A stretch of 64,000 bases of DNA from Dehalococcoidia bacterium (GTDB lineage: Bacteria; Chloroflexota; Dehalococcoidia; UBA2979). The translations under genes were made by a program, and so were the position numbers. Below the pieces are notes generated by a model. It saw only the letters and a list, made by a program, of their open reading frames with translations. It had not been told where the DNA came from and did no database searches. This document shows positions 4,580 to 20,025 of the stretch, one piece after another (position 1 is the stretch's first letter; each line of letters starts with the position of its first letter). The stretch is taken from contig OZ244720.1 of assembly GCA_965219085.1 (NCBI GenBank), forward strand, positions 1,995,429 through 2,059,428, written 5' to 3'.

Positions 4580-5596
4580 TTGGCCCATCTATATGCTGGT
4601 CGCGCGCACGCGATGCTGGCCCCGGCCAGAGAGGACCGCATGACGCTCGACTTTGCGACTGCCCGGCTGCTGATGCAGATGGCGGAAGCCGGCGGCACGC
4701 CGCTGCACGAGAGCACGCCCGCGGAGGCGCGCGCGCTCGGGCGCGCGCTCATGGAGCTCAACGGCCCGGCGCCACCGATGCTTCGCGTCGACGAGCACAG
4801 CCTCGCCAGGCCGGACGGCACGGTCCCGATCCGCGTGTTGGCGCCGCTGGAGCAGCCGGCCGGCGTGATCGTCTACTACCACGGTGGCGGCTGGGTCATC
4901 GGTTCGATCGACGAGTCAGACACCGTGGCGCGCAAGCTCGCCGAGCGCACGTCGTGCACGGTGGTGCTCGTCGGCTACCGGCTCGCGCCCGAGCACCGCT
5001 ACCCAGTGGCGGTCGACGACTCGTACGCGGCGCTGGAGTGGGTCGGCGAGCACGTCGATGAGCTGGCAAGGCCGGGCGCTCCACTGTTTGTCGCTGGTGA
5101 CAGCGCCGGCGGCAACCTCGCGGCCGTGATGGCGCTGCGAGCGCGCGATCGCCGAGGCCCGCCGATCGCGGCGCAGATCCTGATCTACCCGGTCACCGAC
5201 GCCGACTTCGAGCGTCCGTCGTACACCGATCCCGGGAACCAGCTACTGCTGACGCGCGAGGCCATGGCCTGGTTCTGGGATCACTACGTCCCGGACGCCG
5301 CGCGACGCGTCGAGCCCGACGCCTCGCCGCTGCGCGCCGCCGACCTCGCCGGGCTGCCACCGGCGGTCGTGCTGACCGCCGAGCACGACGTGCTGCGCGA
5401 CGAGGGCGAAGCCTACGCCGAGCGGCTCGAGGCGGCCGGAGTGCCGGTCAACCTCCAGCGCCACGAGGGTCAGACACACGGCTTCTTCACGCTGCTGATG
5501 CTACCGGGCAGCGAGCGCGGCTTTCAGCAGGTGGTAAAGGCCGTGCGCGCGACGATCGCCGAGCGTGCGAGGGAGGCCGCGAACGCGACGCCGTAA
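4580..5596 (+). CDS. alpha/beta-hydrolase esterase/lipase (HSL family, Aes-like)
   Basis: HGGG oxyanion motif (VIVYYHGGGWVIGS) and nucleophile elbow GDSAGG; the true start may be the internal Met near 4640. Confidence 0.8.
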   Translation: MAHLYAGRAHAMLAPAREDRMTLDFATARLLMQMAEAGGTPLHESTPAEARALGRALMELNGPAPPMLRVDEHSLARPDGTVPIRVLAPLEQPAGVIVYYHGGGWVIGSIDESDTVARKLAERTSCTVVLVGYRLAPEHRYPVAVDDSYAALEWVGEHVDELARPGAPLFVAGDSAGGNLAAVMALRARDRRGPPIAAQILIYPVTDADFERPSYTDPGNQLLLTREAMAWFWDHYVPDAARRVEPDASPLRAADLAGLPPAVVLTAEHDVLRDEGEAYAERLEAAGVPVNLQRHEGQTHGFFTLLMLPGSERGFQQVVKAVRATIAERAREAANATP

Positions 5597-5672
5597 CCCA
5601 CGCTTCGCGCGCGAGGCGATAGAGTGTGGCGGGCGCGGCCTCGCGGGCGCCGCTCGACGCGGGAGGATTGAG

Positions 5673-7310
5673 ATGACGACCAACACCAGCCAGTCAGAAC
5701 TCGACGCCGTCGTGGTGGGGGCGGGATTCTCCGGCATGTACATGCTCTACCGGCTGCGCGAAGTGCTCGGCCTGTCCGCGCGCGTGTTCGAGGCGGGGGA
5801 CAACGTCGGCGGTACCTGGTACTGGAACCGCTACCCCGGCGCGCGCTGCGACTCCGAGTCGTACGTCTACTGCTTCTCGTTCGACAAGGACCTCGCCCAG
5901 GAGTGGAACTGGAGCGGCAAGTACCCCGAGCAGCCCGAGATCCTGCGCTACCTCAACCACGTCGCCGATCGGTTCGGCCTCCGCCCCGATATCCAGTTCG
6001 AGACGCGCGTCACCGCCGCGCACTTCCGCGAGGACCTCAACCGCTGGGAGATCGAGACCGACCAGGGCGACCGCGTGCTCGCGCGCTACTTCATCACCGG
6101 GATCGGCTGCCTCTCGGCGGGCCAGATCCCCGACATCGAGGGGCTCGATGGCTTCGAGGGCGACTGGTACCACACCGGCGCGTGGCCCCACGAAGGCGTC
6201 GACCTCGCGGGCAAGCGCGTAGGGGTGGTCGGCACTGGTTCGAGTGGTGTTCAGTCGATCCCGGTGATCGCGAAGCAGGCAGGGCACGTGACTGTCTTCC
6301 AGCGCACGCCGCAGTACATGATCCCGGCCCGCCACGGCACGGTCACGCCCGAGTTCCTCGATGACATCAAGGGCCGCTACGACCAGATCTTCGAGAAGAT
6401 CAAATGGTCGGGCGGTGGCGGCCCCTACGACGTCGTCGACCGCTCGGCCCTCGATGTCGGGGACGAGGAGCGGCGCGCGATCTACGAGGCGGCGTGGGAA
6501 CAGGGCGGGCACCGCTTCCTCAGCGCCACCTTCCACGACATCGCCGCCGACCGGCGGGCCAACGACACGGCCTCCGAGTTCATCCGCTCGAAGATCCGCG
6601 AAATCGTCCGCGACCCCGAGACCGCCGAGAAGCTGGTCCCGCGCGACCACCCGTTCGCGTCGAAGCGCGCGCTGATCGACACCGACTACTACGACACCTA
6701 CAACCGTGACAACGTCGACCTGGTCGACATTCGCCACGACCCGATCGAGGAGATCACGCCGCGCGGCATCCGCACCCAGGATGGCGAGTACGAGCTCGAC
6801 ATCATCGTCTTCGCCACCGGCTACGACGCGATGACCGGCGCGTTCAACCGCATCGACATCCGCGGCCGCGGCGGCGAGCTGCTCCGGGAGAAATGGGCGG
6901 AGGGCCCGAAGACCTACTTGGGGCTGTCCTCGGCGGGCTTCCCCAACATGTTCATGATCACCGGCCCCGGCAGCCCCTCGGTGCTGAGCAACATGCCCGT
7001 CTCGATCGAGCAGCACGTCGAGTGGATCTCGGACTTCGTCGACCACATGCTCGAGCACGGTGTCGAGATCGCCGAGGCGGACGCCGATGCCGAGGCGGAC
7101 TGGGTCGACCACGTCAACGACGCGGCGAGCAAGACGCTCTACCCGCTGGCGGACTCGTGGTACCTGGGCGCCAACATCCCCGGCAAGCCGCGCGTGTTCA
7201 TGCCCTACACGGGCGGGGTCGGCAACTACCGCAAGAAGTGCGACGAGGTCGCCGAGGCCGGCTACGAGGGTTACGTGCTCCACAGCGAGGCGCCCCTCGG
7301 CGTCCGCTGA
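5673..7310 (+). CDS. Baeyer-Villiger (flavin-containing) monooxygenase, cyclohexanone-monooxygenase type
   Basis: ATG at 5673 preceded by GGGAGG; FAD GxGxxG (VVVGAGFSG), BVMO fingerprint FEGDWYHTGAWP, second Rossmann GKRVGVVGTGSSG; the ORF-track entry 5565..7310 starts upstream at a GTG. Confidence 0.85.
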   Translation: MTTNTSQSELDAVVVGAGFSGMYMLYRLREVLGLSARVFEAGDNVGGTWYWNRYPGARCDSESYVYCFSFDKDLAQEWNWSGKYPEQPEILRYLNHVADRFGLRPDIQFETRVTAAHFREDLNRWEIETDQGDRVLARYFITGIGCLSAGQIPDIEGLDGFEGDWYHTGAWPHEGVDLAGKRVGVVGTGSSGVQSIPVIAKQAGHVTVFQRTPQYMIPARHGTVTPEFLDDIKGRYDQIFEKIKWSGGGGPYDVVDRSALDVGDEERRAIYEAAWEQGGHRFLSATFHDIAADRRANDTASEFIRSKIREIVRDPETAEKLVPRDHPFASKRALIDTDYYDTYNRDNVDLVDIRHDPIEEITPRGIRTQDGEYELDIIVFATGYDAMTGAFNRIDIRGRGGELLREKWAEGPKTYLGLSSAGFPNMFMITGPGSPSVLSNMPVSIEQHVEWISDFVDHMLEHGVEIAEADADAEADWVDHVNDAASKTLYPLADSWYLGANIPGKPRVFMPYTGGVGNYRKKCDEVAEAGYEGYVLHSEAPLGVR

Positions 7311-7518
7311 GCCGCCGGGCGCGCTCGCCTGAAGGGGATGCGGGACTCGATATCGAGGGTCCGAAGGCGTTCCCCGAGCATCGCCGCCCGGACGTCATCG
7401 ACGCGTAGCCTCCTGCGCGAGAGTCGGCACGACGACGGCACAGCCTGTTACCGCAGCGAAAGATTTGCGAAACGCGAACGTCACGCCCCTGACACCCGTC
7501 GGTACCCCACGCGTTCAA

Positions 7519-7600: not shown

Positions 7601-8336
7601 CTTGTAGGTGGCGCAACGCGCCCCGCCCGCAACGCGGAACCGGAGGAGAGACCCTTGATGTTGACCTGGCCCCACCTGGCGGACCTGCGATTGGTGGCGA
7701 TGCTCGTCGCCGCCGTCGCGCTCTTCGCGGTCGCATGCGGCGGCGACGACGACGACACCACGCCGGCTCCGATCAGGTGATCGTGCTGGTGAAAGACAAC
7801 TCCACCGGCAACGACCAGATCATCGCCACCGCGGACATCCAGTCGATCGAGGATCTCGGCGGCACGACGATCGGCGTTGAGGTCGGCGTTGTCGACCACT
7901 TCCTCCTGCTGCTCGGCCTCGAGTCCGTCGGGCTCACCGCCGCCGACGTCAACATCGTCAACCTCGAGACCGGCGCGGGGGTGCCGCATTCGCGTCGGGC
8001 CAGCTCGACGCGGTCGGCGTCTTCGCACCGTTTACGGTGCAGGCGCTGATCCGCGAGGGTTCGCACACGCTCTTCACGTCCGCCCTGTTCCCCGGCGCGA
8101 TTCCCGACCAACTCGTGCTCTCGCGCGAGATCGTCGACTCGCGACCGGAGGACGTGCAGAAGATCATCGAGGCCTGGTTCAAGACCCTCGAATGCATCGA
8201 GGCGAATCCGGCGGACGCGGTCGCCATCATGGCCAGGCGCGCGGGCGTCACGGCCGAGGAATACGCAGAGTACGACTGACCTGACCCCTTGAAACGGGAC
8301 CACCGTTGATGAGAGTCCTTTGGCCCATGAAAGTGG

Positions 8337-8633
8337 GTGGAGGAGGACATCACGGTGAAACGACGCAGGCACACGCCTGAGCAGATCGTGCGCAAGCTGC
8401 GCGAGGTGGAGCGGCTGCTCGGCGAAGGGCAGACGATCGCCGAGGCGGCGAAGCGGGTCGAGGTCTCGGAGCAGACCTACCACCGCTGGCGCAACCAGTA
8501 CGGCGGGATGAAGGCCGACGACGCCAAACGGCTGCGCGAGCTGGAGCGCGAGAACGTCCGGCTGAAGCGGATCGTCGCCGACAAGGAACTCGAGATCGAC
8601 GCGCTCAAGGAGATCGCCCGGGGAAACTGGTAA
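8337..8633 (+). CDS. IS3-family transposase OrfA (HTH)
   Basis: 98 aa, ..RRRHTPEQIVRKLREVERLLGEGQTIAEAAKRVEVSEQTYHRWRNQYGG.. with leucine-zipper tail, typical of IS3 OrfA. Confidence 0.9.
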   Translation: MEEDITVKRRRHTPEQIVRKLREVERLLGEGQTIAEAAKRVEVSEQTYHRWRNQYGGMKADDAKRLRELERENVRLKRIVADKELEIDALKEIARGNW

Positions 8634-8662
8634 GCCCGTCGCGCCGGCGCGAGGCAGTCTGC

Positions 8663-9487
8663 ATGTTGCAGGACCGCCTCGAGTTGTCGGAACGGCGGGC
8701 ATGCCGGGTCACCGGCCAGCACCGCTCCACACAGCGCCGCCTCCCGGTGCGCGGCCGCGGCGACGACGCGCTGCGCGCGGAACTCCACGCCTTCTCGCGT
8801 GGCCACCCCCGCTGGGGGTACCGCCGGGCCTGGGCGACCTTACGCGAGGAGGGCTGGGGCGTGAATCGCAAGCGGGTGCAACGGCTCTGGCGTGAGGAAG
8901 GGCTGCGCGTCCCGGTGAAACGGCGCAAGCGTCAGCGCCTGGGGGACTCGGCGGTGCCCGCCGCCAGGCTGCGCGCTGAGCGGCCGAACCACGTCTGGGC
9001 GCTGGACTTCCAGTTCGACCAGACCGCGGACGGGCGGGTCCTGAAGCTGCTCAACATCGTCGACGAGCACACACGGGAGGCGCTGGCGATCGTGGCCGCC
9101 AGGCGCATCAACGCCGACGCCACGGCCTCAACGCTCGACGGGATCGTCGCCCGGCGCGGGACGGCGCCTGGGTACATCCGTTGCGACAATGGGCCCGAGC
9201 TCACGGCCAACGCGCTGCGCGACTGGTGCCGGTTCAGCGGTACGGGCAGCAGCTACATCGAGCCCGGTGCGCCGTGGGAGAACCCGTACGTCGAGTCGTT
9301 CAACGGCCGGTTGCGCGACGAGTTCCTGGCGGTCGAGCAGTTCGACAGCCTGCTCGAGGCGCAGGTGCTGCTCGAGGACTGGCGGATCGAGTACAACACG
9401 AAGCGCCCGCATAGCAGCCTGGGCTGGCTCGCCCCGGCTGCCTACGCCGAGCGCTGGGAGACTCAGCTACACGCTGGACTCTCATAA
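8663..9487 (+). CDS. IS3-family transposase OrfB (DDE integrase core, rve)
   Basis: 274 aa with the integrase catalytic core (..HVWALDFQF.., ..YIRCDNGPELT.., ..SFNGRLRDEFL..); probably expressed as an OrfAB fusion by -1 frameshifting. Confidence 0.9.
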   Translation: MLQDRLELSERRACRVTGQHRSTQRRLPVRGRGDDALRAELHAFSRGHPRWGYRRAWATLREEGWGVNRKRVQRLWREEGLRVPVKRRKRQRLGDSAVPAARLRAERPNHVWALDFQFDQTADGRVLKLLNIVDEHTREALAIVAARRINADATASTLDGIVARRGTAPGYIRCDNGPELTANALRDWCRFSGTGSSYIEPGAPWENPYVESFNGRLRDEFLAVEQFDSLLEAQVLLEDWRIEYNTKRPHSSLGWLAPAAYAERWETQLHAGLS

Positions 9488-9799
9488 GCGGTGGACTCGC
9501 GAAGGGGGTCCGGTCACGACGCCGGCGCCACGATCTTCACGGCTGCGCAGAACCTCACGGCGTTCGAGGCCGGCGACGACTTCACGAGCCTGCAGTTCGT
9601 GGCCGACCAGATCGTCCCGTTCCTGATCGATGCCGAGTTCATCGAGGCGGAGCCGGATCTGTCGGGGCTCTTCGATCCGTCGTTCGTCGAGACCTACGTG
9701 TCGGCGAACTAACGGGTCTCGCAGGAAGTGGCTAAACCCGAATACACCGATCGAGGCTTGAGGGGGCGGGATGCCGGTATGCCGGAGAGTTCGGCAGGT

Positions 9800-11350
9800 G
9801 TGTCGGTGTTCGCCGGGCGGTGCCGGAGCGAGCAGGCGCAGCTCGGGGGCGCTGAGGGCGCGGGCGCAAGGCGTGCGCGGGCATGCTGGCGCGAGCCTCG
9901 GAGGGGGGCCGGCGCTGTGAGCGGTCGTCAGGCCGGGAGCGGTAACGCCCGTAGTCGCGCGAGCGCGGCTGCCAGCTGCCCGGCCCAGGGCCAGCGCCTG
10001 GGGAGGTGCAGGGTCCAGCGCCGGGCCGAGTGGGTGAGCCGTCCGGCGAGGGCGAAATAGCGCCGCCTGAGCGTCCTGGTGGTGACGATTCCCTCGCCGA
10101 GCCCGAGCCGTGCCGTCCAGCGGGCGAGGTTGTGCGCGATCACCTGCACCGCGAGCCATGCCGCGTTCGCGGCGAAGCGGCCCGAGGGGAGATGGTTGAG
10201 CCCGACGCCGTACTTGAGATCGCGGATCGCGTTCTCGATCTCGGCGTGGCGACGATGGTCGGTCTCGAGCTCCATCATCTCCCCCGAGCGGTCGGTGATG
10301 AAGGCGTGGTAGCTGTACGTCGCGAAGAGCGCCAGCTGTGAGCCGGGCGCCGGCTTCACGCGCCGCACGATGAGCCGCACCGCGCTGGCGTCCCTCGTGT
10401 GCCGGAACGGGGTGTAGGTCGTCTCGGCGACATCGGCGCCGCCCGGCAGCCAGTACGGGATCGGCGTCCAGTCCTCTTGCGGTATCGCCTCGATCAGCCT
10501 ACGCACGCTCGGCTGCTGGCGGATCGTGACCGAGAAGCGGACATCCTGCTTGCGGCAGACGGCGACGACCGCGTGGTTGTAGAAGCCGCTGTCGGCGCGC
10601 ACCGTGAGCTGCCCGCTCGCCCCGGCGTCGCGGACCCGCGCCACCGTCTCACGCAGGAAGTGTGCGGCGCCGCGGGCGGTGTTGGCGCGGCCCTCGCGCA
10701 GCCGCGCCATCAGCACGTCACCCGTCCCGGCCGCAACGGCGAGCAGCGGGTGGTAGCCGCGCGCGCCCGTGTAGCCGTGGTGCCGGGCGCCCTCCTTCGC
10801 CAAGCCGTAGGTCTCGCAGATCGTCGAGTCGAGGTCGATCGTGAACGGCGCGTCGCCGGGTCCCGCCCCGGCCGCCCAGCCGCGAGCGAGCAACTCGCGG
10901 CTGACGCGGTCGAGCTGGCGGACGTGGCCCCAGCGGAAGCTGCGCAGGAACGTGCCCAGGGTGGACGGCGCCTTGACCGTGCAAGCCAGCACGCTCGCCG
11001 TCCCGCCGGCGCGCAACGCATCGGCGTCGTCGATGCAGTCACCGCCCGCGAGCGCCGAGGCGATGAGGGTCAGCAGCTTGTCGCCGGCGTTCGCCCGGCC
11101 CGGCGCGTCACCGAGGTCGACGCAGCTGTCGGCGAGCTCTTGCAGACCGAGATGCTGGGCGAGCGTGGCCGGGAGCAGCAGGCCCGCGTGGTCCACGAGG
11201 CGGTCGTCATCGAAGGCGATGTCTATCCGGTCGGGGTCGCTCGTTGGTAGCATCGAATGGGTGCTCCCTGTGGCTGTGACGTGATTCGGCAAAACCCATT
11301 GTCCCAGCTACAGCGGAGCACCCAACCGCAGCCCCTAGCGCGCTCTTCTT
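9800..11350 (-). mobile_element. second insertion sequence, IS1380/IS4-like (boundaries approximate)
   Basis: Contains a single 454-aa DDE transposase ORF between the binding-protein remnant and the permease gene; ends and target duplication could not be fixed by eye. Confidence 0.55.
9928..11292 (-). CDS. DDE transposase, IS1380-family-like
   Basis: 454 aa; size and organisation typical of IS1380/IS4-type transposases (..TIDLDSTICETYG.., ..HPLLAVAAGTGDVL..). Confidence 0.7.
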   Translation of the reverse strand: MPNHVTATGSTHSMLPTSDPDRIDIAFDDDRLVDHAGLLLPATLAQHLGLQELADSCVDLGDAPGRANAGDKLLTLIASALAGGDCIDDADALRAGGTASVLACTVKAPSTLGTFLRSFRWGHVRQLDRVSRELLARGWAAGAGPGDAPFTIDLDSTICETYGLAKEGARHHGYTGARGYHPLLAVAAGTGDVLMARLREGRANTARGAAHFLRETVARVRDAGASGQLTVRADSGFYNHAVVAVCRKQDVRFSVTIRQQPSVRRLIEAIPQEDWTPIPYWLPGGADVAETTYTPFRHTRDASAVRLIVRRVKPAPGSQLALFATYSYHAFITDRSGEMMELETDHRRHAEIENAIRDLKYGVGLNHLPSGRFAANAAWLAVQVIAHNLARWTARLGLGEGIVTTRTLRRRYFALAGRLTHSARRWTLHLPRRWPWAGQLAAALARLRALPLPA

Positions 11351-11478
11351 CGGTGGATCAGGGCTAAAGCAGGCAAGGGGGCGGCCATGCGCGACAGCAC
11401 CGGCGCGCCCCAGGCGGAGTTGCCGCCCGTCGCCTGTGGACCACGCCGCCACGGGCCGGCACGCCCGGCGGCCGGCTC

Positions 11479-12267
11479 ATGGTCGGCCGCCGGCCGAGCT
11501 GGTTCTGGCGCATCCGCGAGGACATCTCGCCCACGCTCCGGATCGCGCTCGCATCGGCCTCGGTGACGGCGCCGCTGGCGGTCTGGATCATCCTCGTCGC
11601 GAACCACGCGGTGAACCCGATCTTCCTGCCGAATCCGCTCGACGTGCTGGGCTCGCTGCGAGACCTGTTTACCGAGGGGCTGCCGCTCTCGGACGCTCGA
11701 GCCAGCCTCCAGCGCGTCGCGATCGGCTTCGGGATCTCGCTGCCACTCGGCCTCGCGATGGGGACGTTCAAGAGCATGGAGGCGCTGTTCGAGCCGGTGA
11801 TCGGCCTGTTGCGCTACATGCCCGCGCCGGCATTCGTGCCGCTGCTCATCATCTGGTTCGGCTTCGCCGAGACGCCGAAGGTCGCGCTGATCCTCATCGG
11901 CACGATGTTCTTCAACACCCTGATGATCGCGAACGTCGTCTGGCAGGTACCGACCGATCTGATCCGGGTGGCGCTGACGCTGGGCGCGAGCAACGTGGCG
12001 GTCTTCACGAAGGTGATCTTCCCGCACAGCGTGCCCGGTGCGATCGATGCGGCGCGTGTGAACCTCGCCGCGGCGTGGAACCTGATCGTCGTGGCCGAGC
12101 TCTTCGCCGCCGACGAAGGCCTCGGTTACCGCATCGTCCGCTCCCAGAAGTTCCTGCACATCGACACCATCTTCGCGGTGCTGATCGTGATCGGGATTCT
12201 CGGCCTCACCAGCGATCTGCTGCTTCGCACCGCGCGCAACCGCCTCGCGCCGTGGTCACAGGAGTAG
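11479..12267 (+). CDS. ABC transporter permease, NitT/TauT family (SsuC-like)
   Basis: 262 aa, six transmembrane segments, EAA-like loop (..GASNVAVFTKVIFPHSVPG..). Confidence 0.85.
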   Translation: MVGRRPSWFWRIREDISPTLRIALASASVTAPLAVWIILVANHAVNPIFLPNPLDVLGSLRDLFTEGLPLSDARASLQRVAIGFGISLPLGLAMGTFKSMEALFEPVIGLLRYMPAPAFVPLLIIWFGFAETPKVALILIGTMFFNTLMIANVVWQVPTDLIRVALTLGASNVAVFTKVIFPHSVPGAIDAARVNLAAAWNLIVVAELFAADEGLGYRIVRSQKFLHIDTIFAVLIVIGILGLTSDLLLRTARNRLAPWSQE

Positions 12268-12273
12268 ACGGCC

Positions 12274-13056
12274 ATGGTCGCTCGGCACACAGCGTTGCAG
12301 ACCCGAGGGCTCACCAAGCCGTTCCCCGGCCGCGGCGGCGAATCGACCGTCGCGCTCGAGGACATCGACCTCCACGTGGAACGGGGCGAGTTCGTATGCC
12401 TCGACGGCGCCTCCGGCTGCGGCAAGTCCACGCTGCTGAATATCATCGCCGGTCTGATTGAGCCCTCCGAGGGCGAGGCGCTGCTCGATGGCCTGCCGAT
12501 TGGCGGACCCAGCCCGAACCGCGGGCTGGTCTCGCAGGGCTACTCGCTGCTTCCCTGGCGGACCGTCGCCAAGAACGTCGCGTTCGGCCTCGAGCTCTCG
12601 GGCTGGAGCAAGGCGGAGCGAGCGGAGCGCGTCGACTACCTCCTTGGGGTCATGCAACTCACGAAATGGGCCGACTCCCGGCCCAGCGCGCTCTCGGGCG
12701 GGATGCGGCAGCGTGTCGCCATCGCGCGTTCGCTCGCCCCCCAACCCGAGGTGCTGCTGCTGGACGAGCCGTTCGGCGCGCTGGACGCGCACACGCGGAT
12801 GCTGATGCAGGAGTTCCTGCCGGACATCTGGCGCGAGACCGGCACCACCGTGCTGATGGTCACGCACGATGTCGAAGAGGCATTGTTCCTCGCGCAGCGG
12901 ATCTACGTGCTGTCCTCGCACCCCGGTCGCGTGAAGCGCGAGATCGTGCTGCCCTTCGGCGATAACCGTTCGCAGCAGTTGCGACGGCAAGAGGACTTCC
13001 TGGACCTGCGCGACGAGGTGCATGCGTTGCTCTTCGCCGAGGTCTCCGAGGTCTAG
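12274..13056 (+). CDS. ABC transporter ATP-binding protein, NitT/TauT family (SsuB/TauB-like)
   Basis: Walker A GASGCGKST, signature LSGGMRQRVAIARSL, Walker B LLLDEPFGALD. Confidence 0.9.
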   Translation: MVARHTALQTRGLTKPFPGRGGESTVALEDIDLHVERGEFVCLDGASGCGKSTLLNIIAGLIEPSEGEALLDGLPIGGPSPNRGLVSQGYSLLPWRTVAKNVAFGLELSGWSKAERAERVDYLLGVMQLTKWADSRPSALSGGMRQRVAIARSLAPQPEVLLLDEPFGALDAHTRMLMQEFLPDIWRETGTTVLMVTHDVEEALFLAQRIYVLSSHPGRVKREIVLPFGDNRSQQLRRQEDFLDLRDEVHALLFAEVSEV

Positions 13057-13138
13057 GCGTCATGCCCGGTATCGAACCCCGCTGAAAGGACCCTCGTGAC
13101 CCAGCCGCCGTTCCCACTCGCACGAATACCGCGGTGAA

Positions 13139-14251
13139 GTGCCGCTCCACGACCATTACGGCCCCGAGGCGCGCTACGCTGCCGAGGCCGAGGCGCTGAT
13201 TCCGCAGACCGCCTGCGAGCGCGAGATCGCGTGCGGCCTCGAGCTCGGCCCGCAGGGCGCCGGCTCGATCGTCGATCGGTCGATCCCGACGTTCAGCCGC
13301 GGCGAGCTGCCCCACTTCGCGGGTATCAACACCTTCCTCAAGGCCCCCTACCGCGAGGATGTGCGCGAGTGCCGCGCGTACGACGTATCGATCCTCGGCG
13401 CCCCGTACGACGGCGGCGCCACGTACCGCCCGGGCACGCGTTTCGGCCCCCAGGGTATCCGCAAGATCTCCGCGCTCTACGGTCCGTACTCGTTCGAACT
13501 CGGCGTCGACCTGCGCGAGTCGATCACGATCTGCGACGTCGGCGACATCTTCACCATCCCGGCGAACATCGAGAAGACGTTCGACCAGATCAGCAAGGCC
13601 GTCGGTCACGTCTACGCGAGCGGCTCCTTCCCGATCGTGCCCGGCGGCGATCACTCGATCGGCTACCCGACGGTGCGCGCCGTCGCGGAGCACCTCGACG
13701 GCGGCAACCTCGGGATCATCCACTTCGACCGCCACGTTGACACGCAGGAGACCGACCTCGACGAGCGGATGCACACCACACCCTGGTTCCAGGCGACGGA
13801 CATCCCGAACGTGCCGGCGAAGAACCTCGTCCAGATCGGCATCGGCGGCTGGCAGGCGCCGCGCCCCGGCGTGAAGGTCGGCCGCGAGCGCGGCACGACG
13901 ATCATGACCGTCACCGACTGCGTCGAGATGGGCATCGAGGACGCCGCCGCGCGCGCCCTTGAGGTGGCATGGGACGGCGCCGACGCCGTCTGGCTCTCCT
14001 TCGATGTCGACTGCCTGGACGCGGCCTTCGTGCCCGGCACGGGCTGGCCCGAGCCGGGAGGCTTCCTGCCTCGCGAGGTGCTGAAGTTCATCCAGCTGAT
14101 CTCGGAGCGCCCGCTCGCCGGGATGGAGGTTGTGGAGTGCTCGCCCCCCTACGACACCGCCGAGATCACCGCACTGATCGCCACGCGCGTGATCTGCGAC
14201 ACGCTGGGCCGCCAGGTGCGCGCGGGGCACCTGCCGCGGCGGGGGGCGTAG
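13139..14251 (+). CDS. arginase/agmatinase-family ureohydrolase with an N-terminal extension of about 60 aa (candidate guanidine hydrolase; alternatively agmatinase or guanidinobutyrase)
   Basis: 370 aa; Mn/Ni-binding motifs [15 protein letters not shown] and SFDVDCLD; GTG start; lies directly between the NitT/TauT transporter genes and ureA. Confidence 0.75.
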
Positions 14252-14255
14252 CGCC

Positions 14256-14556
14256 ATGCGACTGACACCTCGCGAGCAGGATGCGCTGATGATCTACGTC
14301 GCCGCCGACCTCGCCCGGAAGCGGCGCGCGCGGCCTGCGCCTCAACTACCCCGAGTCCGTGGCGCTGATCAGCGAGGCCATGATGGAGGCCGCACGCGAC
14401 GGCACGGCGGTCACCGAGGCCGCCGTGCGGGGCGCCCAGGTGCTCGGCATCGAGGACGTGATGGAAGGCATCCCCGAGATGGTCACCCTCGTACAGGTGG
14501 AGGCGACGTTCCCGGACGGAACGAAGCTCGTCTCCTGCCACGATCCGATCCGCTGA
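14256..14556 (+). pseudogene. ureA: urease gamma subunit (ureA) with a 1-bp frameshift
   Basis: [25 protein letters not shown] then frame switch to [43 protein letters not shown]; the indel lies near 14335 in GCGGCGCGCGCGG. Confidence 0.75.
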
Positions 14557-14936
14557 TGGCGGACCACGCACGCTACCTCGTCGAGGACGGCGACCTCGAG
14601 ATCAACGCCGGACGCCCGACGGTCACGCTGGCGGTCGCGAACTCCGGCGACCGCCCGATCCAGGTGGGATCGCACGCGCACTTCTTCGAGGTGAACCGCG
14701 CACTCCGCCTCGACCGCGCCGCCGCATTCGGGATGCGACTCGACATTCCCGCCGGCACGGCGGTTCGGTTCGAGCCGGGTCAGCAGCAGACCGTCACGCT
14801 CGTCGCCTTCGGCGGCGCACGACGGGCGCACGGCATGAACGCGCTTGTCGAAGGCTCCACCGACAGCGCCGACGTGCGCGCCGCCGCGCTCGCCCGCCTC
14901 GAGGAGCGCGGATTCAGCTCGGAGGCCCCGCGATGA
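14555..14936 (+). CDS. ureB: urease beta subunit
   Basis: ATG overlaps the ureA stop (TGATG); [54 protein letters not shown].. Confidence 0.85.
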
Positions 14937-16650
14937 GCCGCATCTCCCGCGAGCGCTACGCCGCGCTCTACGGCCCCACGACCGGCGACCGCTTCCGCCC
15001 CGCCGACACGCAGCTGATCTGGCGCGTCGAGCATGACCACGCCGTACTCGGCGAGGAGGCCGTGTTCGGCGGGGGCAAGACGATCCGCGATGGCATGGCG
15101 CAGGCGCCACGCATGACCGCCGCGGGCGGCAGTCCCGACCTCGTGATCACGAGTGCGCTGATCCTCGATCCCGTGCTCGGCGTGATCAAGGGCGACATCG
15201 TCGTCAAGGATGGGCGGATCGCGGCCATCGGCAAGGCCGGAAAACCCCGACATCATGGACGGCGTCGACCCCGCGCTCGTGATCGGGCCGGGTACCGAGG
15301 TCATCGCCGGCGAGCACATGATCGCGACGCCCGGCGGCGTCGACAGCCACATCCACATGATCGCGCCGCAGCAGGCGTGGGCCGCCCTCTCGAACGGCAT
15401 CACGACGATGCTCGGCGGCGCCGCCGGCCCCGCCGACGGCACGCGCGCCACCACCACCACGCCCGGCCCGTGGAACATCGCGCGCATGCTCGAGGCCGCC
15501 GAGACCATGCCCGTGAACTGGGGCCTCTTCGCGAAGGCGAACGCCTCGGACGTGGCGGCGATCGCCGAGCAGGTCGCGGCCTGCGCGCTCAAGGTCCACG
15601 AGGACTGGGGCTCGTCCCCCGCCGTGATCGACGCCGCGCTCCGCGCCGCGGATGAGTACGACGTGCAGCTGGCGATCCACACCGACACCCTCAACGAGAG
15701 GGGCTTCGTCGAGGACACCATCGCCGCGATCGCGGGCCGCACGATCCACACGTTCCACACCGAGGGCGCGGGCGGCGGTCACGCTCCGGACATCCTCCGC
15801 CTCGCCGGCGAGCCGAACGTGCTCCCTTTGAGCACCAACCCGACTCGCCCCTACACGGTGAACACGCTGGCCGAGCACATGGACATGCTCATGGTCTGCC
15901 ATCACCTCAACCCGCAGGTCCCCGAGGACGTCGCCTTCGCCGACAGCCGCATCCGCCCCGAGACGATGGCCGCCGAGGATGTCGTCCACGACGTGGGCGT
16001 ACTGAGCATGTACTCGTCGGACTCGCAGGCGATGGGCCGCGCCGGCGAGAACTTCACGCGCCTGATCCAGACCGCCGACAAGATGAAGCAGGTGCGCGGC
16101 CCGCTGCCCGAGGACGCCGCGGGCGACGACAACGCCCGCGTCCTCCGCTACATCGCCAAGCTCACCATCAACCCCGCCCGCACCCACGGCATCGCGCACG
16201 AGGTTGGCAGCCTCGAGACCGGCAAGCTCGCCGACATCGTGCTGTGGCCGACGCAGTTCTTCGGTGCGAAGCCCGCGCTCGTCGTCAAGGGCGGCATGAT
16301 CGCGTGGTTCGTGATGGGCGAGCCGAACGCCTCGATCCCGACGGTCGAGCCGGTCATCTACCGCCCGATGTTCGGCGCACACCCCTCCGTGATCCCGGCG
16401 ACCAGCGTCACCTTCCTCAGCTAGGCCACGCTGGATCGCGGCGTGGCCGGGGCGCTCGGCCTGCGGTGTCGCATCGCCGTCAGCAGGAACAATCGTGCGC
16501 TCACCAAGGCCGACATGCTCCGCAATGACGCCCTCCGGGCGATCGATGTCGATCCCGAGACCTACGAGGTGCGCGACGATGGCGAGGTCGTCACCTCGCC
16601 CCCCGCAGAGACCCTCGCGCTGTCCCAGCGCTACTTCCCTGGTCTAGCGA
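14933..16650 (+). pseudogene. ureC: urease alpha subunit (ureC), disrupted: +1 indel near 15236, in-frame TAG at about 16425, and an indel at the ureC/ureF junction
   Basis: N-terminus [21 protein letters not shown]..; GGAAAACCCC gives ..AGKPRHH.. instead of ..AGNPDIMDG..; conserved ..TFLSQAA.. reads TFLS*AT (TAG); C-terminus ..SQRYF then runs into ureF because of CCCT in place of CCT. Confidence 0.8.
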
Positions 16651-17353
16651 TGCCCGCCTCGACCCGCTCGCTGATCGCGCTGCTCCAACTCGCGGATTCC
16701 TCGTTCCCGATGGGCGCGTTCGCCCACTCCTACGGGCTGGAGCAGCTCGTCCGCGACGGCATGGTGCGGGACGCCGCATCGCTCGAGGCCTTCGTCGACT
16801 CGATCGTCTCGCTCCAGCTCGCGCCCGCCGAGGCCCGCGCCGCCGCCTCGGCGTGCCACGCCGCCGCGCTGGGCGGCCTCGAGACTGGTGCTCGCGATCG
16901 ACCACTGCCTCCACGTCACGCGCGCCCCTCGTGAGCTGCGCGACGCGGCGGTCGCCGCCGGCCGCCGGCTGCTCGAGGAGGTCGCCGCGCACGCCGCCGG
17001 CCGCCGCGGCCTTGTGCCCGCGTTCCGCGACGCCGTGCTCGAAGACCGCGCGCCCGGCGCCCACGCCGTCGCGCTCGGCGTGGCGGGCGCGGCCTTCGGC
17101 GTGCCGCCCGAGGACGTTGCCGCCGCCCCGCTCTTCAGCACGGCGAACGCGCTCGTGCAGGCGGCGATGCGCCTGCTCCCGATCTCGCACCGCGACGCGC
17201 AGTCCGTGCTGCACCGCGTTCGCGACGCGATCGCCGACGCCGCGCGCGCGGCCGCCGCGGACGGAACCGCTCGCGTTCACATCGTTCCACCCACTCCGGG
17301 AGATCGCGTCGATGCGCCACGCGAGCGCACCGGTCCGCTTCTTCGCGTCGTAA
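16648..17353 (+). pseudogene. ureF: urease accessory protein UreF with two frameshifts
   Basis: MPASTRSLIALLQLADSSFPMGAFAHSYGLE.. (frame 0), then ..LVLAIDHCLHVTRAPRELRD..FSTANALVQAAMRLLP.. (frame +1), then ..EPLAFTSFHPLREIASMRHASAPVRFFAS* (frame +2, TAA at 17351). Confidence 0.7.
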
Positions 17354-17371
17354 CGCAAGCAATCGGGGCAC

Positions 17372-17397
17372 GCAGCCGAGGCATGCAGCCGAGGCAT
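17372..17397 (+). repeat. perfect 13-bp tandem duplication (GCAGCCGAGGCAT x2) in the ureF-ureG junction
   Basis: Read directly from the sequence, immediately 5' of the ureG ATG. Confidence 0.85.
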
Positions 17398-17409
17398 CGA
17401 GGTCAGACC

Positions 17410-18039
17410 ATGAGCCAGCCCATCACCATCGGCGTCGGCGGCCCCGTCGGCTCCGGCACGTCGCTGCTCGTCGAGCGCATCGTCCCGCCGATGATCGAAC
17501 GTGGCTTCTCGCCGGGCGTCGTGGCCAACGACGTCGTCACCGAGGAGGACGCACTGATCATCCGCCGCGGCCTCGATGGCATCCTCGACCCGGCGCGCAT
17601 CGTCGGCGTCGCGACCGGCGCCTGTCCGCATCAGGCGGTGCGCGAGGACCCATCGCTCAATCTCGCCGCGATCGAGCGTCTCGCGGAGGAGCACCCGGAC
17701 ATCGACCTCGTGTTCATCGAGAGCGGCGGCGACAACCTCACGCTGACCTTCAGCGCGCTGCTGGCGCGGCTCTCGATCTACGTGATGGATGTCGCCGGCG
17801 GCGACAAGACCCCTCGCAAGCGGGGGGCGGGCATGATCCAGTCGGACCTGCTGGTCATCAACAAGACCGATCTCGCGCCATACGTCGGGGTCGACGTCAT
17901 GGAGCGCGACGCCGCGACGTACCGCAGCGGCCCGCTGCTGTTCACCGACTGCCGCCACGGCAGCGGTCTCGTCGAGGTCGCCGACTGGCTTGCCACTTCG
18001 ATCAGCGCGCTCGCCGCTCCGGCTGCCGCCCCGGCGTGA
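17410..18039 (+). CDS. ureG: urease accessory GTPase
   Basis: MSQPITIGVGGPVGSGTSLL (P-loop), ..ESGGDNL.., ..INKTDL..; 209 aa, intact. Confidence 0.9.
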   Translation: MSQPITIGVGGPVGSGTSLLVERIVPPMIERGFSPGVVANDVVTEEDALIIRRGLDGILDPARIVGVATGACPHQAVREDPSLNLAAIERLAEEHPDIDLVFIESGGDNLTLTFSALLARLSIYVMDVAGGDKTPRKRGAGMIQSDLLVINKTDLAPYVGVDVMERDAATYRSGPLLFTDCRHGSGLVEVADWLATSISALAAPAAAPA

Positions 18040-18049
18040 CGCGCGCCTG

Positions 18050-18843
18050 ATGCCCGTCCGCAGCCGGCTGGTCGCGCGCTTCGCTCCGTCGCCGGGTGGA
18101 GCGCCCCGCGCGGTGCGCGCCGACGTTGCGGCGACCACCCCGCTCGAGCTGCGCGGCCCCTTCCCCGCCTCGATCCCCGGTACGCCCCGCGCTACCTCTT
18201 GCTCAACGTCACCGCCGGCATCCTCGACGGCGACGACTACGCGATCGAGGTCTGCGCGGCGCCGGGCACGCGAGTCGGCGTGGAGCCCACATTCGCCGCG
18301 AAGGTGTTCCGCTCACGCGGCGGCGGCGCGGCCTTGCGCACGCGCATCGAGGTCATGCCGGGCGCGGAGCTCCGCTACGACTCGGGCCTGCTGATCCCGC
18401 ATGCGGGAGCGGTCCTCCGTCAGCAAACCGAGATCGTGCTGCACGAATCGGCGCGGGCAAGCTGGAGCGAGTCGCTGTCGTTCGGCCGCCTCTCGCACGA
18501 CGAGCGGTTCCAGTTCAAGCGGATCGAGAACGAGCTGCGAGTCGTCGATCCCGCGGGGCGTGTGCGCTACGAGCGCCGCTCCGACCTCGTCCCGCAACGC
18601 GACCGTGCCGCCCTCGAATCAGCCGTCGGCTGCTTCGGCGCGGTCGGCTCGATGGTCCTGCTGGGCAGGCAGCCCGGCGAGGAGCCCGAACTCCCCGATC
18701 TCTCCGCGCTGCCCGGCGTCTACGCCGGTGCGACGACACTTCCCGACGACCTCGGCACGATCGTCCACGTGCTCGCTGAGTGGCCCGAGCAGATCGAGGC
18801 GGTATTCAGCCTCGCGCGAGCGGCGCGGTGCGCGCAGGTATGA
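18050..18843 (+). pseudogene. ureD: urease accessory protein UreD/UreH with a 1-bp frameshift near 18190
   Basis: MPVRSRLVARFAPSPGGAPRAVRADVAATTPLELRGPFPASIPGTPR then frame switch to YLLLNVTAGILDGDDYAIEV..RIENELRVVDPAGRVRYERR.. Confidence 0.7.
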
Positions 18844-19194
18844 GCGTCGCTGCCCCTCGAGGACCGGGTAGTGACTCCATCAGGAGACGGCGCTGCGGCC
18901 GCGGGCCGAGACTCACAACTCGGACACTGGTATCCGGCCCTCTGGAACCCTTCTGGACCCGGCCGCCATCCAACACCGCCCTGCATGGGGTAGATGTCCC
19001 GCGGCAGCAGGTCTCCAGGCAGAGGATGACACCGGCGCGATTATCTCCCCGCCGCGCTTGCTTCCAGTTGCTACTGATCCAGGCGGGCGGATGCTGTTCA
19101 GCGCTGGATGAGTTGCTGAGCCGATCGGCCACGCCCCAGGCGATTTCGCTACCGAGGCTCGCGGTTCCGCCTTGGGCCGTGCGAGGATCGCCGT

Positions 19195-20025
19195 ATGCCA
19201 CTCGTCGGAGGCAAGGAGCTGCTCGATCGCGCCGAGCGCGGCGGCTACGCCGTAGCCGGGTTCAACGTCTCCAACATCGAGCTCGCCCTCGGCGTCATTG
19301 ACGCCGCCGAGGCGCGGCGCGCGCCGATCCTGCTCCAGTTCAACCCCTCCAACATCGAGCACTTTGGGGGGATCGAGGTCGCCGCGGCAACGGCCCGTGC
19401 CCTCGCCCGGCGCGCCGAGGCACCGATCGCGGTCCACCTCGACCACGGCCCCGACATCACGCTGCTGCGCGCGGCGGGCCACGCCGGCTTTACCTCGCTC
19501 ATGTTCGACGGGTCGACCACGCCCATCGACCGCAATATCACCGACACGCGCGCTGCGGGCGCGCTCGCCATCGAGTACGGCGTGGCGCTCGAAGCCGAGC
19601 TCGGCCACGTCGGCGGCCGCGAACCCGGTGTCGTCAGCTCCGAGTCGATCCTGACCGACCCGACCGCGGCCCGCCGCTTCGTCGACGAGACACAGGTCGA
19701 CTCGCTCGCGATCTCGGTCGGCACCGCGCACGGGCTCGCCGGCATCGTCGACGTGGCGCTCGTGCGCGAGCTGCGCGCGGCGACGCGCGGGTTGCCGCTC
19801 GTGCTGCACGGCGGCTCCGGCGTCGCGCCCAACGCGCTGCGCGACTGCGTGCGAGCAGGGGTGCGCAAGCTCAACGTCAGCACCGAGATCCATGCGGCCT
19901 TCGCACAGGCAGTCGCGGGCGCCGGCGGCTCCGACCCACGCCCGGCGCTGCGCGCCGCCCGCAATGCAGTGGCCGCCGCCGCGTCGCTCCGCATCGACGC
20001 GCTCGGCTCGGCGCTGCGCGGCTGA
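19195..20025 (+). CDS. fba: class II fructose/ketose-bisphosphate aldolase
   Basis: ..GYAVAGFNVSNIE.., HLDHG, SVGTAHG, LVLHGGSG motifs; 276 aa. Confidence 0.85.
   Translation: MPLVGGKELLDRAERGGYAVAGFNVSNIELALGVIDAAEARRAPILLQFNPSNIEHFGGIEVAAATARALARRAEAPIAVHLDHGPDITLLRAAGHAGFTSLMFDGSTTPIDRNITDTRAAGALAIEYGVALEAELGHVGGREPGVVSSESILTDPTAARRFVDETQVDSLAISVGTAHGLAGIVDVALVRELRAATRGLPLVLHGGSGVAPNALRDCVRAGVRKLNVSTEIHAAFAQAVAGAGGSDPRPALRAARNAVAAAASLRIDALGSALRG

Follow-up and report, generated by a model that had tools for sequence, protein, structure and literature searches.

In the 64-kb window (the whole stretch of DNA analyzed here), a gene for a substrate-binding protein of the SsuA/NitT/TauT family is split in two by an insertion sequence. 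The insertion sequence, which occupies positions 8277..9516 on the + strand, is 1,240 bp long with a G+C content of 69%. It starts with TGACC, ends with GGTCA, and is bordered on each side by the tetranucleotide CGAC. The parts of the interrupted gene and the ends of the element are listed below.

7658..8276, + strand: 5' portion of the split gene (SsuA/NitT/TauT-family substrate-binding protein); it encodes a lipoprotein-like signal peptide and carries a 1-bp indel near 7975 as well as a 253-bp deletion at 7760/7761
8273..8276: left CGAC of the target-site duplication
8277..9516, + strand: complete IS3-family (IS407-group) insertion sequence
8277..8318, + strand: left inverted repeat (IRL), TGACCTGACCCCTT...GAGAGTCC, with TGACC at 8277-8281
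9476..9516, + strand: right inverted repeat (IRR), GGACTCTCAT...GGGGGTCCGGTCA, with GGTCA at 9512-9516
9517..9520: right copy of the target-site duplication, CGAC
9521..9712, + strand: remaining 3' portion of the split gene, AGATIF...YVSAN followed by the stop

Ends of the element and the uninterrupted target site

We determined the boundaries by BLAST against 19 full-length copies from related genomes, which align exactly over element positions 1-1240, and by the colinearity of the flanks with uninterrupted orthologous loci. Every coordinate and string given in the initial annotation, namely an element at 8277..9516 with TGACC/GGTCA ends and CGAC on both flanks, proved exact. The ends fit the IS3-family pattern of imperfect inverted repeats with 5'-TG...CA-3' termini. 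When IRL (8277-8318, 42 nt) was aligned with the reverse complement of 9476-9516 (41 nt), 34 of 44 columns matched, giving imperfect repeats of ~42 bp, in agreement with the ~40 bp originally proposed; the other copies also support the right repeat. The alignment score of 40 lies far beyond chance, as 19,164 segments of 1,240 bp drawn at random from the same window and scored in the same way had a mean of -2.3 (standard deviation = 7.0, maximum = 26). Identical flanking 4-mers arose by chance in 0.85% of these random segments. A 5-bp duplication, ACGAC, with the element ending in GGTC, is formally possible because an A precedes both CGAC copies, and it was rejected on the basis of the symmetry of the inverted repeats and of the 19 other copies ending in GGTCA. 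In the abutted inverted-repeat ends, a junction judged by eye, no convincing -35/-10 promoter pair was found.

When 8277..9520 is deleted, ...AEEYAEYD runs in frame into AGATIFTAAQNLTAFEAGDDF..., and the rejoined protein, used as a query, recovered full-length orthologues, the best of which (P0002, 358 aa) is 93% identical. As anticipated in the initial annotation, the uninterrupted orthologues are continuous across the junction, reading ...AEEYAEYDAGTTIFTAAQNLTAFEAGDDF... with no residue gained or lost, and their alignment with the rejoined protein also defines the 3' part of the gene. The uninterrupted site was found in four related metagenome contigs (L001 and L002, the DNA of P0002; L090; and L091) that share 93-97% nucleotide identity with the window. 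In these contigs, CGAC occurs only once, within ...GAGTACGAC followed directly by GCCGGC... (...TACGAC/GCCGGC...), and both flanks of the window align to them through CGAC inclusive. The single-CGAC empty sites and the alignment of the flanks therefore provide direct evidence of an insertion with a 4-bp target duplication, as had been suggested for this locus. The element also supplies the TGA that ends the upstream fragment, with the ORF 8037..8279 stopping at its first three bases. That excision restores the reading frame, a further claim made at the outset, is true across the insertion point but not for the gene as a whole, which carries the 253-bp deletion and the 1-bp indel upstream. In an exact search of JGI metagenome contigs, the left junction GARTAYGACTGACCTGACCCC had no match, so that the same insertion was not seen elsewhere.

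The family of the target gene was assigned by a match above the cutoff to TIGR01728 / Pfam NMT1. The orthologue P0002 scored 213 bits against TIGR01728 (cutoff 163.5), which places it among the SsuA / NitT/TauT-family substrate-binding proteins. The binding-protein fragments in the window alone reached only 48.9 bits because the gene is broken, and the rejoined C-terminal 143 aa alone had no match in Pfam, so that NCBIfam and the full-length orthologues were needed.

Transposase genes, frameshift signals and related copies

The coding capacity of the element consists of two overlapping reading frames, accompanied by two predicted frameshifting signals.

8355..8633, + strand: orfA, 92 codons from GTG 8355, encoding an HTH_Tnp_1 DNA-binding protein (Pfam PF01527, 61.6 bits)
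8621..8627, + strand: G_GGA_AAC, the predicted slippery heptamer for a -1 shift, 9 nt upstream of the orfA stop and in the X_XXY_YYZ register of orfA
8634..8700, + strand: predicted frameshift-stimulating stem, 8634-8640 paired with 8694-8700 (7 bp), enclosing further helices and starting 6 nt 3' of the heptamer
8663..9487, + strand: orfB, 274 codons from ATG 8663, encoding the DDE integrase core (Pfam rve, rve_3 and HTH_21), in the -1 frame, which is open from 8582

orfA lies in frame 0 and orfB in frame -1, with the slippery motif inside their overlap, which is the layout of the IS3 family. The longest ORF for orfA begins at GTG 8337; the start codon is probably GTG 8355, after GGAGGA, judging from the Shine-Dalgarno-like sequence GGAGGAGGA at 8339-8347. 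OrfB scored 234.6 bits against NCBIfam NF033516 (transpos_IS3, cutoff 160), and the conceptual OrfAB fusion (377 aa, with a -1 slip at the heptamer) scored 296.3 bits in one stretch covering positions 3-368 of 369. The DD(35)E triad of OrfB consists of D115, D175 and E211; 35 residues separate D175 from E211, and an R occupies E+7. These DDE columns are invariant in comparison with IS1404, IS476, IS3, IS2 and IS150. The exact OrfB sequence was not found in the protein collection.

G_GGA_AAC is a documented efficient -1 site, or shifty heptamer (PMC5009743). Of 76 relatives, 71 have the motif G_GGA_AAN at this position, in Chloroflexota and Actinomycetota and down to 53% OrfA identity, while the surrounding codons vary. 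The RNA downstream of the heptamer had a minimum free energy of -63.1 kcal/mol (z = -4.08). Across 18 diverse relatives, the 7-bp stem retained 98.4% pairing, compared with 31-47% when the partner was slid, and its covariation score was 0.246 compared with 0.089 for shuffles, although this conservation is partly due to the protein because the 3' arm falls in the conserved SERRAC coding motif.

We also scanned species-representative genomes, and 80 loci were returned. The 19 full-length copies, 18 of them at 93-95% identity and one at 78.5%, were all located in uncultured Dehalococcoidia MAGs. All start with TGACC(T/C)GACCCC and end with G(T/G)CCGGTCA. A perfect 4-bp flanking repeat was found in 15 of the 19 copies (chance expectation, about 0.1-0.2), and nearly all of these repeats differ in sequence. 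The lack of a perfect duplication in the other four is normal after recombination between copies or adjacent deletions. Copies within a genome were 99.1-100% identical (measured on five copies from a complete chromosome and on eight from a second MAG), which points to recent transposition in the Dehalococcoidia lineage, and the copy at 8277..9516 may itself still be active. Within the 64-kb window, neither blastn nor tblastn detected a second copy.

In L007, L016, L018, L023 and L049, loci of related Dehalococcoidia MAGs, partial or nested copies of this element, and in L049 and L009 also of the IS1380-family element described below, lie within a few kb. Such IS-rich regions include insertions of one insertion sequence into another.

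Probable decay of the transporter and urease operon

The interrupted gene belongs to an operon at 7658-18900 of the window, the order of which is kept in L001, L002 and L091: SsuA-family binding protein, permease, ATPase, arginase-family ureohydrolase and ureA-B-C-F-G-D. The ureohydrolase scored 161.6 bits, below the agmatinase cutoff of 174.3. This gene content suggests that a guanidino or ureido compound is taken up and hydrolyzed, first to urea and from there to ammonia. When the whole window was scanned with Rfam for a riboswitch that might point to the substrate, none was found upstream of the binding-protein gene. Its sole match was 5_ureB_sRNA at 15219-15374 on the - strand (52.3 bits, gathering score 40), antisense within ureC, the urease alpha-subunit gene, and this match is most likely a consequence of coding-sequence conservation, not a genuine sRNA.

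Besides the element at 8277..9516, the operon carries a second insertion sequence and a series of small apparent lesions.

9737..11363: IS1380-family element, 1,627 bp, with CCC...GGG ends and a 5-bp duplication CTAAA, between the binding-protein stop and the permease start
9928..11292, - strand: IS1380-family transposase (NF033539, 334.8 bits)
~7975, 11425, 14324, 15241, 16884, 17258, 18185 and ~23060: small (1-2 bp) frameshifting indels, from the binding-protein gene to ureD and, at the last position, in a ctaG-like gene that lies far outside the operon and is split there

The IS1380 insertion has an empty site, GGCTGAAGCAGG, in L001, L002 and L091. In L090, the same IS1380-family element (91% nucleotide identity, full length) interrupts the ABC ATPase gene of the operon. 

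Compared with L001, the binding-protein gene lacks 253 bp at 7760/7761 (L001 10104-10356). The missing segment, ~84 codons of the N-terminal lobe, begins just behind the signal peptide and extends to ...IASVG; its loss shifts the frame, and the breakpoints show no obvious repeat. The 1-bp indel near 7975 lies beside a G run. Because of the deletion and the indel, excision of the insertion sequence alone would not give a working gene. Compared with L002, frameshifts of 1-2 bp are present in the permease gene, ureA, ureC, ureF (two) and ureD. Several of the small indels fall within short homopolymers, and the related contigs were assembled from long metagenomic reads, so that these indels could either be errors in the long-read consensus or reflect genuine gene decay. 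This doubt does not extend to the 253-bp deletion or the two IS insertions. The insertion at 8277..9516 is one of several lesions in a locus that is being lost. The dN/dS of the binding-protein fragments relative to L002 was 0.32, similar to the neighboring genes (0.15-0.74), indicating that the inactivation is recent on a scale of roughly 11% synonymous divergence.

A rival reading is that the binding-protein gene, or even the whole operon, was already non-functional and that the element landed in a pseudogene rather than killing an active gene. We place the chance of this only slightly below even. The 253-bp frame-shifting deletion and the 1-bp indel lie in the very gene that the element interrupts, the IS1380-family element separates that gene from the permease gene, small frameshifts relative to L002 affect ureA, ureC, ureF, ureD and the permease gene, and the same operon is broken at other places in related strains. 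However, the order of events is unreadable from one sequence. In addition, the dN/dS of the fragments lies within the range of their neighbors and well below 1, so that any decay must be recent, and the small indels may be long-read assembly errors, the ctaG-like gene outside the operon being frameshifted as well. The ORFs 8037..8279 and 9491..9712 should be annotated as one binding-protein pseudogene, and metabolic reconstructions of the source organism should treat the transporter of the urease-linked operon as non-functional.

Synteny with L001 and L002 ends at both borders of the operon, at window positions 7444 and 18915. At the upstream border, a flavin monooxygenase gene (5565..7310) in the window stands in place of an MMPL gene in L001, and at the downstream border a class II aldolase gene (19120..20025) stands in place of a luciferase-like gene in L001 and L002. 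The operon may therefore be a movable block. In L091, the closest relative, the binding-protein gene (L091 3600-4110) is truncated at its 5' end beside type I restriction-modification genes, and in L090 (1524-2495) the called binding protein diverges at its N-terminus and is cut short at its C-terminus. The transporter thus appears to have been damaged independently in several strains.

On a broader scale, there is perhaps an even chance that these observations reflect an IS407-group clade that uses G_GGA_AAN and a conserved long-range stem as its frameshift signal and is common to high-G+C Chloroflexota and Actinomycetota. Such a clade would now be expanding in a lineage of uncultured Dehalococcoidia, each genome having at least 8 near-identical copies, and there, jointly with an IS1380-family element, it would repeatedly dismantle the transporter/ureohydrolase/urease operon in different strains.

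Group assignment and comparison with known elements

Membership in the IS3 family, which had been proposed from the start, is borne out by the NF033516 match above the cutoff, the DDE core and the two-ORF 0/-1 layout, and we were able to narrow the assignment to the IS407 group. Within the family, a 4-bp duplication marks the IS407 subgroup, while IS2 generates 5 bp and the rest 3 bp (PMC10045372). The IS407 group includes IS1404, IS476 and ISXac2, which are about 1.2 kb long and flanked by 4-bp repeats (PMC2722093), and its members from Paracoccus and Xanthomonas range from 1,195 to 1,269 bp (PMC3281130, PMC2722093). The element, at 1,240 bp, falls within the length range of about 1.1-1.4 kb that we used for the group.

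We compared the groups by pairwise scores against IS1404, IS476, IS3, IS2 and IS150. OrfB scored 184 bits against IS1404 (43% identity) and 179 bits against IS476 (40%), compared with 57, 68 and 73 bits against the OrfB proteins of E. coli IS3, IS2 and IS150, respectively, a 2.5-3 times higher score for the IS407-group members. The IS476 copy that we fetched begins with TGACCTGCCCCC and has its own 4-bp repeat, GCTT; of the first 12 nt of our element, 11 agree with this terminus. Assignment to the IS407 group rests on the similarity of the transposase together with the 4-bp duplication, the length and the terminus TGACCTG.CCCC. We are highly confident that 8277..9516 is an intact IS3-family, IS407-group element inserted in a transporter binding-protein gene with a 4-bp CGAC duplication.

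Membership of the element in the IS481 family, or in a different IS3 subgroup (IS3, IS51, IS150 or IS2), is very unlikely. The transposases of IS481 and IS3 are related and have rve_3 in common, the fusion protein reaches 144.4 bits against the NCBIfam IS481 model NF033577, and the IS51 group was outside the direct comparison. However, 144.4 bits is below the NF033577 cutoff of 224, whereas the IS3 model gives 296 against a cutoff of 160, and IS481 elements have a single ORF without a frameshift, in contrast to the two-ORF -1 layout with a conserved heptamer observed here. In 16 of the 20 copies the duplication is 4 bp, not 3, 5 or 6 bp; the scores of the transposase against IS1404 and IS476 exceed those against IS3, IS2 or IS150 by a factor of 2.5-3; and IS476 has almost the same terminus. 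Even less probable is an assembly artefact in which a long-read metagenome assembler misplaced a repeat: the window contains many small indels typical of error-prone assemblies and insertion sequences are classic sources of misassembly, but both junctions are base-precise, the duplicated 4 bp occur once in four empty sites, and a misjoin would yield neither a target duplication nor colinear, in-frame gene halves.

For an IS407-group element, we propose the following course of events. The element inserted at codon ~291 of the gene encoding the substrate-binding (periplasmic/lipoprotein) component of a NitT/TauT (SsuA)-type ABC transporter and truncates the binding protein after ...EYD; staggered target cleavage and repair would have duplicated CGAC. 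OrfA, which contains the HTH, would be translated conventionally, and an occasional -1 slip on G_GGA_AAC, aided by the stem 6 nt downstream, would produce the 377-aa OrfA-OrfB DDE transposase. This protein would recognize the TGACC... inverted repeats, and, by analogy with studied members of the IS3 family, movement would be expected to proceed by copy-out/paste-in via a circular intermediate. The insertion is real but ordinary, no open question depends on it, and its value lies mainly in annotation. The element nevertheless represents a clean multi-copy IS407-group example with a G_GGA_AAC shift site in Chloroflexota and deserves an IS name.

The element shares with IS911, IS3, IS2 and IS150 the OrfA/OrfB/OrfAB logic with programmed -1 frameshifting, which for our element is a prediction, as well as the DD(35)E core and the TG...CA ends (PMC5009743). 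It differs from them in that the OrfB identity to experimentally studied IS3-family members is only 26-30%, in its shift site, which is G_GGA_AAC rather than of the A_AAA_AAG type, and in its 4-bp duplication, compared with 3 bp in IS3, IS150 and IS911 and 5 bp in IS2 (PMC10045372).

A closer likeness is found in IS476, IS1404 and ISXac2 of Xanthomonas, which are also about 1.2 kb long, have two ORFs in a 0/-1 arrangement, generate a 4-bp duplication and often interrupt genes. The terminus of IS476, TGACCTGCCCCC, corresponds to TGACCTGACCCC in the Dehalococcoidia element. OrfB is 43%, 40% and 38% identical to the proteins of IS1404, IS476 and ISXac2, respectively (PMC2722093). These elements nevertheless differ from ours, as a transposase identity of only about 40% is accompanied by a different internal part of the inverted repeats, and their hosts are proteobacterial, whereas the host here is an uncultured Dehalococcoidia (Chloroflexota) with 70% G+C. 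The closest annotated transposases in PLSDB belong to unnamed IS3-family elements on plasmids of Mycobacterium marinum, Gordonia and Rhodococcus; over 97% of OrfB, they are 54-55% identical. An identity below 60% would, under the customary ISfinder rule, give an element a new IS name. Judged against these plasmid-collection transposases (54-55%) rather than against ISfinder, the element would be a new member of the group and not a previously described one.
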